From a virus, in IMG/VR virus record IMGVR_UViG_3300014205_000077, positions 1-45,544 of that record: a DNA stretch of 45,544 nt; one strand, 5' to 3'. Under the pieces are notes generated by a model. The model saw nothing but the letters and a program-made list of their open reading frames with translations, searched no databases and was not told the origin of the DNA. Of the stretch, positions 4,433 through 45,544 are shown in pieces. A program made the position numbers and the translations under genes. Positions within the stretch are counted from its first letter, which is position 1. Each line of letters begins with the position of its first letter.

Positions 4433-4792
4433 TTATCTATGATATTTAACCCAAACTGTTTGTCCTGTTCTTGTTATTCCACCCCTCCAATGCAATCCAT
4501 CACTATCCACATTTTCAAAATGTCCATCAGTATAATATTCCCGCTTTTCAATTTCCTTGCCATTTTTTTTAACAGTAACTACCATTACACTATCTATCGT
4601 AATATCGGGAACAATTTTGTTTAACGAATTAATCATACTTTCTTGTTGCTTTTTAATTTCATCTATTTGAAAATAGATTTGGTCAACAGCGACATTTGTT
4701 TCTTTTGTTCTTTGTTTTCCATCCAAACAGAATATAAAAACTAAGCAAATACATATCAATAAACCCAACCATCTTCCTTTTTTATCTATCAT
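4433..4792 (-). CDS. membrane-anchored protein (119 aa)
   Basis: N-terminal TM WLGLLICICLVFIFCL. Confidence 0.55.
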   Translation of the reverse strand: MIDKKGRWLGLLICICLVFIFCLDGKQRTKETNVAVDQIYFQIDEIKKQQESMINSLNKIVPDITIDSVMVVTVKKNGKEIEKREYYTDGHFENVDSDGLHWRGGITRTGQTVWVKYHR

Positions 4793-5253
4793 CTTTCCTC
4801 CTTAAAAACTTTCTTCTTTTGTATTCCCCATTGTATAGCTTCTTTTCTATTTCTACCATAATATAAATCTATTTTTTTGTTATTCTTTTCGTGTGTTCTG
4901 TCAACAACCAAACACCAACCAACATCTTCTATAAATATATTTGTAAACAATGGCAAGAAATTACAAGCAATGACCTTTCTATAATCTCTTACTGTATCCA
5001 ACAACCACCCCGAACCCTCACAAAGGAACGGGGTGGCATCAGTCTCTCTTCTATAACTACAATAAGCAGTAACCTCAACACATCCAACAAACTTCATAGG
5101 ACAATCTGTAGTTGTTGTTAAACTATCTATAGACTGTTGCAAGTCAATCTTATCCTGTTCTAATCGTTCCATCTGTAGTCCTTGTTTATAACTTGTATCA
5201 AAACTGATACAAACTACAGCTGATAGCAACAACAATAAGATTCCCCTTTCCAT
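4789..5253 (-). CDS. secreted 3D-domain (RlpA/MltA-like double-psi barrel) cell-wall protein
   Basis: Signal-like N-terminus; VEVTAYC...VIACNFLPLFTNIFIEDVGWCLVVDR...KIDLYYG follows the 3D-domain pattern. Confidence 0.55.
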   Translation of the reverse strand: MERGILLLLLSAVVCISFDTSYKQGLQMERLEQDKIDLQQSIDSLTTTTDCPMKFVGCVEVTAYCSYRRETDATPFLCEGSGWLLDTVRDYRKVIACNFLPLFTNIFIEDVGWCLVVDRTHEKNNKKIDLYYGRNRKEAIQWGIQKKKVFKEER

Positions 5254-5754: not shown

Positions 5755-6792
5755 TTATCCTCCTATTGGTATTGCAACTCCACAATCTGGACTCGGACAT
5801 ACCCAGAATGGTTTTCCATCCACATCTATCTTGTCCATATTCTCTCCACAAGTGCATTTTCTTGTTGTAGGAACTACGCCTTTCGCATCCTGTTGTGTCT
5901 TATAAAGAGCAGTAAGAGTTGCTCCTAATCCTATAACTCCCTTGTCTTTATCTCCAGTCCATTTGTCTATACATTTCTTTATTACATAGTAGTCATTCCC
6001 TGCCAATGCTTTTCCAAACTCAAAGTAAGTATCTTTTGCCAACTTTTTGTTCTCTTCGCTATCCCAGTTTGTATGTTGTAACAAATGAGATTTTGTAATG
6101 CTCGCAATCAATGAACTCATCTTCGTAGATGCTTTATATTTCGGCTCTACAGATGGAGGTGGAGGAGGAGTTGGAGTTATCGTTTCGGCATTCTTTCTTG
6201 GTAACTTGTCAAGGAAACTAATATTCGCCTCCGCTTGAGTAAAAGTATATTTAGGATGGTTCGTTGCTATCTGATTATACTTGTCAACATCTATCTTTAC
6301 TATGTTCAGTAGAGACAATATCTTTGTGATTTGTTCTGGAGTTATCAATGGCTCTGGCTTACCTACTTCTATCTTTTTGTCTGTTGCTTTTCCACCTCTT
6401 CCCTGGGCAACCTCTGCATCATTGTCATCTTGGGTTGGCGTAAGCATAATCATTGAAGCCAGTCCATATCTTCTTGCATAAGTTACTGCACTTCCATTAG
6501 ATTGTGGGTCATTCTTTACTGGATTGATTTTTAATTTACCACTAATCCATTCTCCAGAAGTATGTAACAATATCGTCTCCATTACATTTTCCCCACTAAC
6601 CACATCTGATGGTTGCAACACGCACAACCCGTTCTTCGTAAGTATTTCTTGACAGGAATCCCAACACATCTTTAGGTCGGCATATTTTGAGTGGAAAAAA
6701 GGATTCACTTTTCCCGCATATACAGAAGTTAGTTCTTTCTGAACTGCATTCATCGCCTTTGCTATTTCTATTATACTTTCTGAATGTTCCAT
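5755..6792 (-). CDS. erf: ERF-family single-strand annealing protein with C-terminal zinc ribbon
   Basis: NPFFHSKYADL, LLHTSGEW, GSAVTYARRYGL and DDND segments are typical of ERF; C-terminal CTCG...CPSPDCG. Confidence 0.85.
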   Translation of the reverse strand: MEHSESIIEIAKAMNAVQKELTSVYAGKVNPFFHSKYADLKMCWDSCQEILTKNGLCVLQPSDVVSGENVMETILLHTSGEWISGKLKINPVKNDPQSNGSAVTYARRYGLASMIMLTPTQDDNDAEVAQGRGGKATDKKIEVGKPEPLITPEQITKILSLLNIVKIDVDKYNQIATNHPKYTFTQAEANISFLDKLPRKNAETITPTPPPPPSVEPKYKASTKMSSLIASITKSHLLQHTNWDSEENKKLAKDTYFEFGKALAGNDYYVIKKCIDKWTGDKDKGVIGLGATLTALYKTQQDAKGVVPTTRKCTCGENMDKIDVDGKPFWVCPSPDCGVAIPIGG

Positions 6793-14671: not shown

Positions 14672-14904
14672 CTAACATTCCCTGCCATATTGGTTTTATC
14701 CTTTGGTTTATCCAAAGAAATGTCAATATGACTATTATTCTCTTTTCTAAATCTACCACCGCATATTTCACATACGATTGGCAATTCCCTATCCGAGTAG
14801 TGCAATGCTATCACCTGTTGCTCGGTCAACCCTTTATCCCTTACGAGGGACTGATTCTTCTGAACAATAGAGCAATCTCTACGTTCAGAATTTGAACATT
14901 TCAT
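14668..14904 (-). CDS. hypothetical protein (78 aa)
   Basis: RBS GGAGGTAGG-ATG; ATGA coupling to the downstream gene. Confidence 0.55.
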   Translation of the reverse strand: MKCSNSERRDCSIVQKNQSLVRDKGLTEQQVIALHYSDRELPIVCEICGGRFRKENNSHIDISLDKPKDKTNMAGNVR

Positions 14905-14924
14905 CCTACCTCCTTTGTTATAAA

Positions 14925-15236
14925 TTATTCTTTCAATATAATTAAACCTTTATCGCCAGAGCCAGAGCCAGAGCAATCGCCAGAGCCATCGTCAGAGCCA
15001 TCGCCAGAGCCAGAGCCAGAGCCATCGCCAGAGCCATCGCCAGAGCCATCGCCAGAGCCATAGCCATCGCCAGAGCCATAGCCATCGCCAGAGCCATAAC
15101 CAGAGCCATCGCCAGAGCCATCGCCAGAGCCATCGCCATCGCCAGAGCTATCGCCATCGCCATAGCCATAACCAGAGCTATAGCCATAACCAGAGCCATC
15201 GCCAGAGCCATCGCCATCGTTTTTTATTTTTTCCAT
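14925..15236 (-). CDS. hyper-acidic Gly/Asp/Ser/Tyr repeat protein, (GDGSG)n, about 103 aa
   Basis: MEKIKNDGDGSGDGSGYGY...GSGDGSGDGSG...; RBS AAGGGGAG before ATG 15236; underlying 6/12-nt DNA periodicity. Confidence 0.6.
   Translation of the reverse strand: MEKIKNDGDGSGDGSGYGYSSGYGYGDGDSSGDGDGSGDGSGDGSGYGSGDGYGSGDGYGSGDGSGDGSGDGSGSGSGDGSDDGSGDCSGSGSGDKGLIILKE
14946..15218. repeat. degenerate 6/12-nt tandem repeat (gccagagccatc-like) encoding (GDGSG)n
   Basis: Visible periodicity across about 270 nt. Confidence 0.9.
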
Positions 15237-15610
15237 ATCGCAACTCCCCTTATGCTTATCCTTGCCTGTTCTGTGCAAGGTATTATCTCTATTGCTTCTG
15301 TTAAAATTATTCTTGTAACTTCACAAGGAAATTTACAAGAATTTGGATTTGCCACCCCATCCATTGCTAATTGAGACAAAGAAGCCGCACCATTCCAATA
15401 CCATAACCTTCTGGCATTCTTCATTTCAACTTCTTTCCCATTCCTTTTGACTAAATTCCCTGCAAAAACACCTGCGGATTGTGTTCTAACTACAACATAA
15501 TCCTTTTCTACCTTTTTAGAGACAGAAACTGAATCTAATGGAATGTATTTTTTCCCATTTATTTCCACAACATTCCCACCTGTTTCTTTTATACTCAATC
15601 CTTTAATCAT
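15224..15610 (-). CDS. conserved-looking hypothetical protein (128 aa)
   Basis: GGGAGG RBS favours ATG 15610; contains ARRLWYWNGAASLSQLAMDG. Confidence 0.6.
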   Translation of the reverse strand: MIKGLSIKETGGNVVEINGKKYIPLDSVSVSKKVEKDYVVVRTQSAGVFAGNLVKRNGKEVEMKNARRLWYWNGAASLSQLAMDGVANPNSCKFPCEVTRIILTEAIEIIPCTEQARISIRGVAIWKK

Positions 15611-18952: not shown

Positions 18953-19029
18953 TGGGGTAAGGGGTGGGAATTAGACCAACGATTACTTGTTTCACAGACA
19001 AGCGCCTTATCCACTTGGCTACCCTTACC
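18953..19029 (-). tRNA. tRNA-His (anticodon GUG) with encoded G-1 and 3' CCA
   Basis: Hand-folded cloverleaf: G-1, acceptor GTAAGGG/CCCTTAC, D-loop AGTGGATA, anticodon stem CTTGT/ACAAG with loop CTGTGAA, T-arm GTTGG-TCTAATT-CCCAC (one mismatch), C73, CCA. Confidence 0.75.
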
Positions 19030-19331: not shown

Positions 19332-19403
19332 AGCCACTGGGGAGAATCGGACTCCCAGTCCCCTGTTTACAAAACAGGCGCTTGTCCATTAAGCTACAGT
19401 GGC
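19332..19403 (-). tRNA. tRNA-Thr (anticodon UGU)
   Basis: Perfect cloverleaf: GCCACTG-TA-GCTT-AATGGAC-AAGC-G-CCTGT-TTTGTAA-ACAGG-GGACT-GGGAG-TCCGATT-CTCCC-CAGTGGC-T. Confidence 0.85.
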
Positions 19404-20085: not shown

Positions 20086-20358
20086 TTACATCTGCAACTG
20101 CCCGCCAATCAATTCATTGTATCTTGCCATCACTGCACTTAACAAATCCCCCTTATCGCTTTCTCCAAAAGAGAAGTAATGATATTTTGTATAGTTTCCC
20201 TCTTTATCTTTCTGCACTGGAGTTCCTATAAACATTCCCTCGTTGCCCTCAACTAAAGACATTGAGTATAGGTTTATTCCATTACAGGTAGCGCTACAAA
20301 ACGCCTTGCACTTCCCATCTCCCTTTACTAAATTCACTTTCACATTCTCTACAGTCAT
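20086..20358 (-). CDS. spoVG: SpoVG-family protein
   Basis: VENVKVNLVKGDGKCKAFCSATCNG...LVEGNEGMFIGTPVQKDKEGNY follows the SpoVG N-terminal domain pattern. Confidence 0.55.
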   Translation of the reverse strand: MTVENVKVNLVKGDGKCKAFCSATCNGINLYSMSLVEGNEGMFIGTPVQKDKEGNYTKYHYFSFGESDKGDLLSAVMARYNELIGGQLQM

Positions 20359-20370
20359 TCTTTCCCCCTT

Positions 20371-21867
20371 TTAATAACCCGCATTCCCAAAATAATTTGT
20401 TCTATTAAAATATTCTCCCTCTTGTTCTGCTTTCCCTGGGATAAACTCATTCATTTCTATTGCACCATACTGGTCGCATTCCATAATGTGTTCATAATAA
20501 CCGTCTTTCATTGGTTTGTCTTGCTTTTTATCATATAAATAACAACCTTTCATTGCCTCTATTGTAATAGGACAACGGTTTTTGTCAACAAAATATTTAC
20601 CAGAGTTCATCCATTCCTGTATTATCTTCACTCTGTCATTAGGAGACATCCACCTATGAGTCGGATGTATGCCAAAACCCTCAAGTATCCCTATAGAAGT
20701 AACCTCTGATTTGTCAGAACTCTGTTGTCCAGCAGGGTCGCACTGGTCTTCCCATCTTGCATTTGGAAATAAGCCAGCGATATCTTCCAACACTACTTTT
20801 ATAAACTCTGACAACACTATCTTAAACCCCATCCATTCTTTTAACTTAACTTTTTCGTTATTTCTATTTATTTTCCATATGCAACACGCAGGTCTAATGT
20901 AACCAAAATCCCACTGTCTCCATAAGATGTCCCCCTCAACATAACATCTATCGTCTCCCAAGTCTATTGTCGTATCTATTGCCATTTCATCTTTCCATAG
21001 AGACGCAAAAACTGGAGTCCCCTGCACTTTCGTAAAGTCTATTTCATATTCTTGTCTAAATTGGTCGTAAGGCATTCCCTCTAATACGAGTTTCTTCCAT
21101 TTCTCACTTCTCTTTGTCTCATCCGCAGTATAATGCAAGAACATACAACGAAATTTGTTGATTTCATTTGTCCAACATCTAATGCCAGTGTCCGTATTCG
21201 GAAAGATACTCTGTTTGTGCCCATCAAATAATGACTTATAAAAGAACGTTTCCCCATTTGGAGACGAAATTCCAGTGTATCTACCAGTTGTCCCCAATGT
21301 TGGTAACGCAGAAGTGAACGCTTCCTGCGCATTTTCTTGGAAAGCTAACTCATCGGCAAGAATACCTGTTGACGTGTAGGTTCTTGGACTATCACTATCT
21401 TGAGATATTGCGTGTATGGTTGAATTGTTAGTAACTATCTTAAACATTGGTGGTTGTTTGCTTGTTTTTACCTCATACATATCTTGTATTGACTTAGGTA
21501 ACTGTTTATACATATATATTACCCTTGACAATAGAGATAACGGACTATCAAAACCAGCCATTTCTTCCTTTTTGCTCTGGAAGAAGATATAAGAGCCAGG
21601 CTTTGATAAACATTCCCACAAATACAATGCACAAAACAACCAAGAACACATAAGTTGACGAGATTTAGCTATTAACAACCTACGATTGTTTTTCCATTCC
21701 TCTGTTGTCCTTCTTAAATACCTTTTGTTAGGGAATCTATGCCTACCACCGCTCTGCGGGTCAAAGGTATACACAAAATGAGTTAAGAAAAACCACGGGT
21801 CTCGCATTGCCAATTCCCATTCAAGTCGTAGTTTCTTTAATTGTAATTGGTCGTCAAGTGTTATCAT
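20371..21867 (-). CDS. terL: terminase large subunit
   Basis: 498 aa; LLIAKSRQLMCSW ATPase-region segment, Walker B-like GILADELAF, C-terminal nuclease-like half; sits next to a small-terminase-like gene. Confidence 0.8.
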   Translation of the reverse strand: MITLDDQLQLKKLRLEWELAMRDPWFFLTHFVYTFDPQSGGRHRFPNKRYLRRTTEEWKNNRRLLIAKSRQLMCSWLFCALYLWECLSKPGSYIFFQSKKEEMAGFDSPLSLLSRVIYMYKQLPKSIQDMYEVKTSKQPPMFKIVTNNSTIHAISQDSDSPRTYTSTGILADELAFQENAQEAFTSALPTLGTTGRYTGISSPNGETFFYKSLFDGHKQSIFPNTDTGIRCWTNEINKFRCMFLHYTADETKRSEKWKKLVLEGMPYDQFRQEYEIDFTKVQGTPVFASLWKDEMAIDTTIDLGDDRCYVEGDILWRQWDFGYIRPACCIWKINRNNEKVKLKEWMGFKIVLSEFIKVVLEDIAGLFPNARWEDQCDPAGQQSSDKSEVTSIGILEGFGIHPTHRWMSPNDRVKIIQEWMNSGKYFVDKNRCPITIEAMKGCYLYDKKQDKPMKDGYYEHIMECDQYGAIEMNEFIPGKAEQEGEYFNRTNYFGNAGY

Positions 21868-21868
21868 A

Positions 21869-22333
21869 TTATTGTTCCACTGTTGTCTTTTTCATTGTAA
21901 GTTTTACTTCTGTTATTTCTTTTTTAAGTTCTGCATCTGTCAATTTCTCATAAGAACGATTCTGTCTCATAGATTCGTCAAACTCTTTAACCATTGGTAT
22001 CTTATCAACAAGAACTCCAAGAGCAATAGTTAATGTTTTTAAGTTCTCATCGTCTGCGCCCTCTGAAATTCTTTTGTGTATTACAGATATAAGCCCCTCA
22101 ACGGAAGAATTGATTTCGTCAATCATCTTGCTGGAACTTCTTATTAACTTATTTCTATTCTTCTCAAGTATTTCCCACACCTCTACGATTTCAAGCCCAA
22201 GCTTAGTAGATATGTCTATGTAAGACTTTCCATTCATCCACCATTGGGTAACGTTCTTAACGTCTCCACCCAATATATTCTTCCCAGTAGATAACTGTAT
22301 TATTTCATTTTCTTTATTAACCAATGTTTTCAT
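21869..22333 (-). CDS. putative terminase small subunit (HTH-containing)
   Basis: Immediately upstream of terL; WWMNGKSYIDISTKLGLEIVEVWEIL HTH-like segment. Confidence 0.45.
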   Translation of the reverse strand: MKTLVNKENEIIQLSTGKNILGGDVKNVTQWWMNGKSYIDISTKLGLEIVEVWEILEKNRNKLIRSSSKMIDEINSSVEGLISVIHKRISEGADDENLKTLTIALGVLVDKIPMVKEFDESMRQNRSYEKLTDAELKKEITEVKLTMKKTTVEQ

Positions 22334-34722: not shown

Positions 34723-35082
34723 ATGATAGGAGGAAACATTAAACTTTACTTAGAGCAGGCGAGTTTTTTACAAGATGTTATTGAATTAATTGCGTTTAGT
34801 TATGGCAAGGGATACGTCGTAACAGGTGGCGAACTATTCCGCACGACAGAGCAACAACAGATTTATATTGATACGGGAAAGTAAATTACTACAAATTCAA
34901 TGCACCTGAAAAAATGCGCTATTGACTTAAATTTCTTTAAGAGTGGAAATGGGGAACTGGTGCAGGATAAAGATAGTTTGCAAGAGATAGGAAATTATTG
35001 GGAAAGTTTATCAAAATTTAATAGGTGGGGTGGGAACTTCAAAAGCTTTATAGACACACCCCACTTTGAGAGGTATGTATGA
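34723..35082 (+). pseudogene. M15-family (VanY / L-alanyl-D-glutamate) zinc peptidase, endolysin-like, interrupted by an in-frame TAA at 34882-34884
   Basis: Same frame on both sides: ...GGELFRTTEQQQIYIDTGK*ITTNSMHLKKCAIDLNFF...WGGNFKSFIDTPHFE; H-x6-D and D-x2-H zinc ligands lie downstream of the stop. Confidence 0.65.
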
Positions 35083-35372
35083 TAATATTATTTTTGATGT
35101 TACAAACCAACACACTTAACATTGACAGTATCATAAAAGAGAATACGATTACAATTCAACCCGACAGTCAAACAGTAATTCAACCATACACTTATGAGCT
35201 TGATACGGCAATGATAAACAAAGTAATGCAAGCATATACGCCAAAACCAATTAAAACAGTCTCTAATGTAAAGAAATGGGCAAAGGTTGGACTTTGGAGT
35301 TATGGTTGTGTAGTGGCGGGTAATGTTTGGTTAATAATAGCAACAACGATAATCTTGTTTAGGGGAAAATAA
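35079..35372 (+). CDS. protein with C-terminal TM (97 aa)
   Basis: VGLWSYGCVVAGNVWLIIATTIILF. Confidence 0.45.
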   Translation: MIILFLMLQTNTLNIDSIIKENTITIQPDSQTVIQPYTYELDTAMINKVMQAYTPKPIKTVSNVKKWAKVGLWSYGCVVAGNVWLIIATTIILFRGK

Positions 35373-35546: not shown

Positions 35547-35756
35547 ATGACAAACGAAGTAAAGCCTGCGAGCCAGAGTATGACGATATGGTCTATAATT
35601 ATTGGACTATTGAGCTTTTTGGCTACTTATGTTTTTGCAGATAAACCTGAAATAGTGCAGTTGCTTAAAGCTCTTGTTGGGTTGTGTGTAGCATTCACTG
35701 GTATAGGTATGAGAAAAGGGATTGGGAAACCAATAACTTTTGGACAGAAAAAATAA
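35547..35756 (+). CDS. two-TM small membrane protein (holin-like, 69 aa)
   Basis: RBS AAGGGGGGGATAT-ATG; TMs IWSIIIGLLSFLATYVF and LVGLCVAFTGIGM. Confidence 0.45.
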   Translation: MTNEVKPASQSMTIWSIIIGLLSFLATYVFADKPEIVQLLKALVGLCVAFTGIGMRKGIGKPITFGQKK

Positions 35757-45283: not shown

Positions 45284-45544
45284 CTAAACCTCTTCCTTTA
45301 ACTTCCCTTCTTCTACTACGGGGACAAGGGATTGCTGGTTGTTTACAAATATCTTCTCGTCAAAGATGCGACCTTGCCCAATTTCCTCGTCAATTCTTTT
45401 CTGTCCCATCTTAAACCATTTATCGTCTTGTTCAATATTGATAAAATTTCTGCCTGTTCTAATGCAAGCTATGGCAGAAGTTCCTACACCTGCGAATGGG
45501 TCAAGAACCAATCCACCAACTCTACAATGTTTTCTAACTATTTC
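45284..45544 (-). CDS. C-terminal part of the DNA methyltransferase that begins at 687 (wraps the circular junction)
   Basis: LVLDPFAGVGTSAIACIRTGRNFINIEQD (motif I, FxGxG); in frame with 1..687 through the 123-bp terminal duplication. Confidence 0.85.
   Translation of the reverse strand, partial: EIVRKHCRVGGLVLDPFAGVGTSAIACIRTGRNFINIEQDDKWFKMGQKRIDEEIGQGRIFDEKIFVNNQQSLVPVVEEGKLKEEV
45422..45544. repeat. terminal direct repeat, identical to 1-123
   Basis: Base-by-base identity. Confidence 0.95.

Follow-up and report, generated by a model that had tools for sequence, protein, structure and literature searches.

The most likely reading of this locus is a genuine and recent ochre mutation by which the canonical endolysin gene of the sampled phage genotype has become a null or near-null allele, a reading to which we assign a probability of roughly 0.6. 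The allele is accordingly best described as a very young pseudogene or a conditionally defective variant, not as an evolved recoding device. The window, as the term is used here, is the whole 45,544-nt stretch of viral DNA that was analysed (IMG/VR record IMGVR_UViG_3300014205_000077). An earlier sequence-only reading of it had listed a recent nonsense mutation among several options, and this is the one best supported: the stop is real, is unique to this genome, falls at an invariant site and is accompanied by no recoding signals.

Positions 34723-35082 of the plus strand form a single frame of 119 sense positions whose sole interruption is the TAA at 34882-34884. The frame opens with ATG 34723, runs through AAG-TAA-ATT (context GGA-AAG-TAA-ATT-ACT) and closes with TGA 35080-35082; mechanical ORF listing splits it into two entries in the same frame, 34723-34884 (53 aa) and 34900-35082 (60 aa). 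Joined across the stop, the product matches Pfam PF13539 (Peptidase_M15_4) at 39.5 bits, above the gathering cut-off of 25, and falls in the PHROG endolysin families (phrog_465, E 2e-11). Taken separately, the C-terminal piece still reaches 36 bits against PF13539, and the N-terminal piece finds no match in the Pfam search. A sequence search of the PDB with the joined protein returns as best matches the L-Ala-D-Glu endopeptidases 23ri and 8q2g (~130 aa), together with Ply500, and in these alignments the stop faces the Ser of the G-K-S-K-T motif. The joined protein also aligns over its full length with hundreds of intact proteins of 112-113 aa. Judged by homology, the locus is a small M15 (Peptidase_M15_4) endolysin gene, putatively of the L-Ala-D-Glu peptidase type. 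It is a member of the M15 family by descent; as encoded, it is a disrupted gene and not one uninterrupted polypeptide. For annotation, the two small ORFs should be treated as one disrupted M15 endolysin gene (Table 1).

Table 1. Positions of the interrupted endolysin gene, its neighbours and a second plausible wall-cleaving protein in the window.
Feature	Position	Strand	Description
154-aa protein	4789..5253	-	N-terminal hydrophobic anchor, long helix, C-terminal double-psi beta-barrel (3D/YuiC/MltA-like), as predicted
Small Cys-rich ORF, 45 aa	34605..34742	+	TAA overlaps ATT 34738
N-terminal fragment ORF, 53 aa	34723..34884	+	Helix 1, strand 1, helix 2, Arg40 (CGC 34840-34842); terminates at premature TAA
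GGAGG Shine-Dalgarno	34729..34733	+	4 nt upstream of ATT 34738; spacing as at most ATG starts of the genome
ATT codon	34738..34740	+	Where aligned homologues have their ATG start
In-frame TAA (ochre)	34882..34884	+	At invariant Ser54; loop between helix 42-50 and zinc ligand His61
In-frame continuation, 65 codons + TGA	34885..35082	+	Carries the entire Pfam M15_4 core
Zinc ligands	His61 34903-34905, Asp68 34924-34926, His114 35062-35064	+	Asp111 near the last His
97-aa protein	35079..35372	+	Hydrophobic C-terminal stretch (by eye); ATG overlaps endolysin TGA (ATGA)
Small protein	35547..35756	+	Two hydrophobic stretches (by eye); ATG after a G-rich Shine-Dalgarno; holin-like candidate

The stop divides the conserved residues of the enzyme. 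R40 lies 5' of it, and the motifs S59-x-H61-x6-D68 and D111-x2-H114 lie 3' of it; R40, H61, D68, D111 and H114 all occupy invariant columns in an alignment with 19 homologues. This is the arrangement that the sequence-only reading had described, namely a full-length M15 endolysin pattern split by an in-frame TAA, with the conserved Arg before the stop and the zinc-ligand motifs after it, and the Pfam, PHROG and homologue alignments bear it out. The same reading had stated that the downstream piece lacks a ribosome-binding site of its own. Consistent with this, no usable Shine-Dalgarno sequence is found in the 25 nt preceding ATG 34900.

The AlphaFold model of the joined endolysin (mean pLDDT 84) comprises a helix at residues 8-28, a strand at 31-35, a helix at 42-50, a loop at 51-59 and a short helical turn at 60-62 around His61, followed by a strand at 64-73, a helix at 83-96 and strands at 100-103 and 114-118. 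The stop position falls in the predicted 51-59 loop. When this model is compared with the PDB by Foldseek, the top matches are Ply500 (2vo9), ChiX (5opz), LysB4 (6akv) and VanX (1r44), with TM-scores of about 0.5. As far as a predicted model allows, these matches confirm the LAS-fold M15 assignment. Ply500, LysB4 and ChiX are the closest structurally (Foldseek probability 1.00, E 4e-4 to 3e-3) and present the zinc ligands in the same order as the window endolysin; the TM-scores are nonetheless only ~0.5 and the identity 21-22%. Ply500 and LysB4 also have added cell-wall-binding domains, whereas the window endolysin is a bare catalytic domain.

A second point of comparison is provided by the small M15 endolysins of Gram-negative phages (8q2g/23ri; phrog_465; PF13539). 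These are of comparable length (~113-119 aa) and share with the window endolysin both the N-terminal Arg and the motif GK-S-KT..S-x-H-x6-D ... D-x2-H. Members of this group, like the window copy, are set in a lysis cassette beside small membrane proteins. The window copy differs from them in having TAA at the GKS-motif position where Ser is invariant, and ATT in place of the start ATG, and its identity to the solved members is low (E 0.007-0.02).

A search of a large protein collection recovered 420 homologues of the endolysin, the best 120 being almost all 110-116 aa long. The closest, P0001, is 71% identical to the joined protein. Searched singly against P0001, the halves give 35/48 identities (73%, E 5e-25) and 45/64 identities (70%, E 2e-32), and both are collinear with it, with no change of frame; these collinear matches exclude chance as the source of the pattern. 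In the alignment with 19 homologues, the window endolysin keeps all 36 invariant columns, and the column in which the stop falls is Ser almost without exception. Against a family HMM trained on 120 homologues, the joined endolysin reaches 177 bits, compared with 200 +/- 12 for the training members, seven of which score below the window protein. Taken in aggregate, these alignments show that the stop is the sole damage to the protein-coding sequence of the gene. Since the gene is otherwise intact, the lesion is likely recent.

The comparison with orthologous lysins that the sequence-only reading had proposed was carried out on 83 related loci drawn from GenBank phages, IMG/VR, metagenome contigs and Logan. 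All 83 have a sense codon for Ser at the stop position (AGC 23, TCT 20, AGT 16, TCA 13, TCC 6, TCG 5) and none has a stop; TAA at the Ser54 position occurs only in the window's own copies. The earlier expectation that the replaced residue is usually Ser or Lys therefore holds for Ser and fails for Lys, which never occurs. TCA is a common Ser codon in the window genome, with 142 uses. Because the related loci uniformly encode Ser, the simplest origin of the stop is one C-to-A change at 34883, converting TCA to TAA. Relatives more than 71% identical to the endolysin were sought in phage GenBank (DNA and protein), IMG/VR, JGI/ENA metagenome contigs, GTDB and a set of 5.8 billion protein clusters, and none was found. 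Endolysin homologues borne on cellular genomes come from Campylobacter concisus, Sideroxydans and Desulfovibrionaceae contigs, which is consistent with a Gram-negative host. One further M15 homologue, at 6064-6297 of Ga0184634_10000143, begins with MQEIYIKTGRS and is missing ~40 N-terminal residues, the Arg among them; it is located directly downstream of an apparent tRNA 3' end and may be a truncated prophage remnant.

The proposed consequences of the mutation follow from this single-base nonsense change at invariant Ser54, most simply TCA to TAA. Ribosomes would stop after 53 residues and release a helix-strand-helix fragment that contains the Arg but lacks all three zinc ligands. The 65 codons beyond the stop, having no ribosome-binding site, would remain essentially untranslated, and useful amounts of the endolysin protein would probably not be made. 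The classical amber and ochre mutants of phage lysis genes, such as nonsense alleles of lambda R or T4 e, offer a close parallel: there too, one premature stop interrupts an otherwise intact endolysin gene, and lysis is expected to fail without suppression of the stop or supply of the enzyme in trans. In contrast to those laboratory alleles, the window allele comes from an environmental metagenome, as the consensus genotype there.

The translation signals at the 5' end of the gene hold a second anomaly. Most window genes have GGAGG 4-7 nt ahead of ATG. Here, the family start codon aligns to ATT 34738, not to ATG 34723, and the gene for P0001 reads GAGGAG-AACA-ATG at the matching position. The in-frame ATG 34723 is 15 nt upstream of the ATT and has no Shine-Dalgarno sequence; translational coupling with the 45-aa ORF upstream, whose stop lies 19 nt further on, could give access to it. 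At the ATT itself, which the TAA of that ORF overlaps, coupling is likewise possible. ATT 34738 may serve as a non-canonical start; otherwise the start has been lost, and the ATT is a second lesion. Its presence slightly favours early decay or selection for low expression.

Any interpretation requires that the TAA be present in the phage itself. Five public contigs carry the locus, as identified by the neighbouring 97-aa gene, and the public protein collection contains both fragments (53 and 60 aa) as well as the neighbouring proteins. Three of these contigs, JGI 3300037067 Ga0378408_0001767 (45,570 nt), Logan SRR6484325 (32,731 nt) and Logan SRR18595300 (40,938 nt), match the window at 100% DNA identity across 20.1-20.3 kb, a stretch that includes the TAA. 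The two Logan contigs derive from separate SRA runs deposited ~4 years apart. The JGI sample 3300037067 was taken in 2017 from leachate well LW3 at a landfill in Southern Ontario (bioRxiv 10.1101/2024.05.30.596742, PMC12607003), and the accession ranges suggest that SRR6484325 is a 2016 sampling of the same landfill. A further contig, ENA ERZ27247358 (45,451 nt, MEGAHIT-style k141), was read over window positions 15.0-31.9 kb only; it is identical to the window across 15.2-31.9 kb, with differences only within the tandem-repeat array at its end. The gene calls of this contig near the endolysin group with those of the TAA-bearing Logan contig. From such gene-call patterns, and from the missing intact protein, the ENA contig and the second JGI contig would carry the same endolysin state. 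A 1969-nt contig from another assembly (ENA ERZ27249422) corresponds to window 20355-22323 and represents the same phage with two SNPs (20539 and 22076) that leave the terminase protein unchanged, so that a near-identical strain exists in a different assembly.

These contigs bear directly on the proposal that sequencing or assembly introduced the stop and that the true phage has a sense codon at this position. In its favour, all of the contigs possibly come from one site and partly from one library. Against it stands the same base in the JGI contig and in both Logan contigs, with 0 differences over 20 kb, as well as the gene calls of the 45,451-nt ENA contig and the absence of any intact version of the window endolysin among ~15 billion predicted proteins. 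Random sequencing error at the TAA is very unlikely, and assembly error, an option in the sequence-only reading, is rejected because the same DNA emerges from three assembly pipelines and at least two runs. An artefact of any kind is hardly credible as the explanation. A real stop may still be decoded, and the same reading had considered programmed readthrough. Under the standard code, the window is 89% coding, with about 80 well-packed ORFs. Of the 80 other ORFs, 51 end in TAA, with TAA-A the most frequent terminator tetranucleotide (20/80). An alternative genetic code was rejected, as TAA is the dominant terminator and the code 11 ORFs are dense and well formed; the window genome gives no evidence of alternative coding. 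A phage-encoded suppressor tRNA was also rejected, since ARAGORN and Rfam detect only tRNA-His(GTG) and tRNA-Thr(TGT) in the window. An intron, an intein, a ribosomal hop and a frameshift are dismissed by the halves being collinear with their homologues, with exactly one codon swapped and no added bases. A 130-nt segment spanning the stop and its downstream flank folds with an MFE of -20.2 kcal/mol, compared with -18.0 +/- 2.8 for shuffles (z = -0.77), and matches no Rfam element. On these sequence-level tests, including the absence of the stop from all 83 relatives, every sequence-level expectation for an evolved readthrough site fails, and programmed readthrough finds no support. A weaker form of the idea is that the TAA is decoded just enough to matter and, together with the ATT start, holds the endolysin to trace amounts; the allele would then be a hypomorph or a selected 'throttle'. 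Decoding could proceed by near-cognate readthrough, by a host ochre suppressor tRNA, or by reinitiation at ATG 34900 with assembly of the fragments. Two independent expression-lowering features in a gene otherwise perfectly conserved would fit this idea, as would the position of the stop in a predicted surface loop between secondary-structure elements, the location of ATG 34900 just 16 nt 3' of the stop, and the recovery of the TAA genotype in more than one run. UAA, however, is the least leaky bacterial stop, and TAA-A is this genome's commonest true terminator; the downstream RNA structure, the phage suppressor tRNA and the conservation of the stop among relatives that might have aided decoding are all missing. 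Near-cognate decoding of UAA gives Gln, Lys or Tyr, which would here replace an invariant Ser, and reinitiation at 34900, besides starting from an ATG that has no Shine-Dalgarno sequence, would lose Ser59 of the S-x-H motif. We regard functionally meaningful decoding as distinctly unlikely. More improbable still is the specific scenario in which the phage uses the ATT start and a low-efficiency or host Ser-suppressed ochre codon to keep the enzyme at trace level, producing delayed or host-conditional lysis and a genotype that persists across sampling dates. Belinky et al. 2021 (PMC7918605) read in-frame stops in prokaryotic genes as readthrough candidates, and the discussion of that paper names TGA as the 'leaky' stop and argues from evolutionary conservation. 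The window endolysin resembles those candidates in having an in-frame stop within a gene that otherwise lacks signs of decay; it differs from them in that the stop is TAA and is kept in no relative.

The remaining alternative is that the M15 enzyme is dead and its loss tolerated, as a dispensable gene in early decay, with wall breakdown supplied by the protein at 4789-5253 or by holin-triggered host autolysins. The sequence-only reading had called the former a 3D-domain wall protein. Searched with Pfam, including 3D (PF06725), the protein itself gives no match at E <= 0.01, and its match to NCBIfam SpsC is weak (20 bits against a cut-off of 280). Its homologues and its predicted fold do support the label: an exhaustive HMMER search finds 321 homologues, seven of the 55 aligned ones match Pfam 3D (best E 1.1e-6), and the AlphaFold model (pLDDT 90) has a double-psi beta-barrel that Foldseek matches to Pa4485, YuiC (4wlk/4wjt) and MltA (2gae/2ae0) with probability 1.00 and E-values of 3e-3 to 1e-2. 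The predicted barrel domain superposes on those of the YuiC/MltA 3D-domain lytic transglycosylases, with 25% identity and an rmsd of 2.8 A to YuiC. Unlike these enzymes, the protein has an N-terminal membrane anchor and a long helix, and finds no Pfam match of its own. Of the three Asp residues of the 3D triad, D117 and D128 are conserved; by a sequence-motif reading, the first Asp position is Asn97, which is invariant in the subfamily. The model and the homologues make it a plausible candidate wall-cleaving protein, and it is the only other candidate wall-cleaving enzyme detected in the genome. The homologues, the SpsC match and the barrel model all favour a tolerated loss, as do the recovery of the genotype in more than one run and the autolysin-assisted phage release known for some hosts. 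Several points weigh against it: the gene adjoins ERF, AAA_28 and RusA in the early/recombination arm and not the lysis cassette, the protein lacks a Pfam match and has Asn for the first Asp of the 3D triad, the Foldseek E-values reach only 3e-3 to 1e-2, and its activity is conjectural. The M15 gene is otherwise free of decay, and it could therefore have become dispensable only recently. Tolerated loss is rather unlikely.

The reading as a recent null or near-null ochre allele faces difficulties of its own. The TAA-bearing genome occurs in two SRA runs and probably also in the second JGI contig; if the runs were sampled on separate dates, a phage with a lysis-null genotype has persisted, and this sits poorly with a simple dead mutant. 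Likewise, the two expression-lowering oddities, ATT and TAA, coincide with no missense damage at conserved sites, and this is also the pattern that selection for very low expression would give. Persistence of the genotype could be accounted for by complementation from a co-infecting wild type. It could also reflect over-representation in cell-fraction DNA, as unlysed cells would keep accumulating phage genomes. Since endolysins of this family and lesions of this type are both well known, the finding is an ordinary one with a modest ecological twist: it is mildly interesting that several landfill assemblies share a consensus genotype in which the canonical endolysin has been knocked out. Were the allele fixed over time at the read level, it would raise the question of how dispensable a canonical endolysin is in nature. 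The answer could then lie in another muralytic enzyme, in the host's autolysins or in co-infecting genomes that complement one another.

The window represents a complete genome of ~45,421 bp with an exact 123-nt terminal overlap (1-123 = 45422-45544), and the genome is thus closed, either circular or terminally redundant. The overlap sits within a gene for an N6/N4 DNA methyltransferase. Among the genes of the window are an SU10-type portal, capsid and adaptor, the large terminase, ERF, RusA, a ThiF-like protein and a methyltransferase, and the source is an SU10-like tailed phage from landfill leachate. An integrase or repressor, which would argue for a decaying prophage, was not found in the window, apart from a weak HTH protein. 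Downstream of the endolysin, the 97-aa protein is 43% identical to the gene 3' of the endolysin in the closest relative (the P0001 locus) and is probably part of the lysis cassette, and the product of 35547..35756 is a holin-like candidate by its sequence. The phage that carries this closest endolysin (71% identity) is a 44-kb Logan contig, SRR26784438, which otherwise shares with the window the 43%-identical downstream gene and weak matches to tail and large proteins. As the two share little beyond the endolysin module, the lysis module seems to move between distant SU10-like phages.

Two further features of the genome were observed. A tandem array with a 12-nt period occupies 14904-15245, inside ORF 14942-15217 (minus strand), for which a 4-residue repeat protein is predicted. 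The JGI and ENA contigs end at this array and, by coordinate arithmetic, both Logan contigs break within ~100 nt of it. The tRNA-His(GTG) and tRNA-Thr(TGT) genes, at 18953-19028 and 19332-19403 on the minus strand, occupy a region with few genes that separates the early genes from the terminase.
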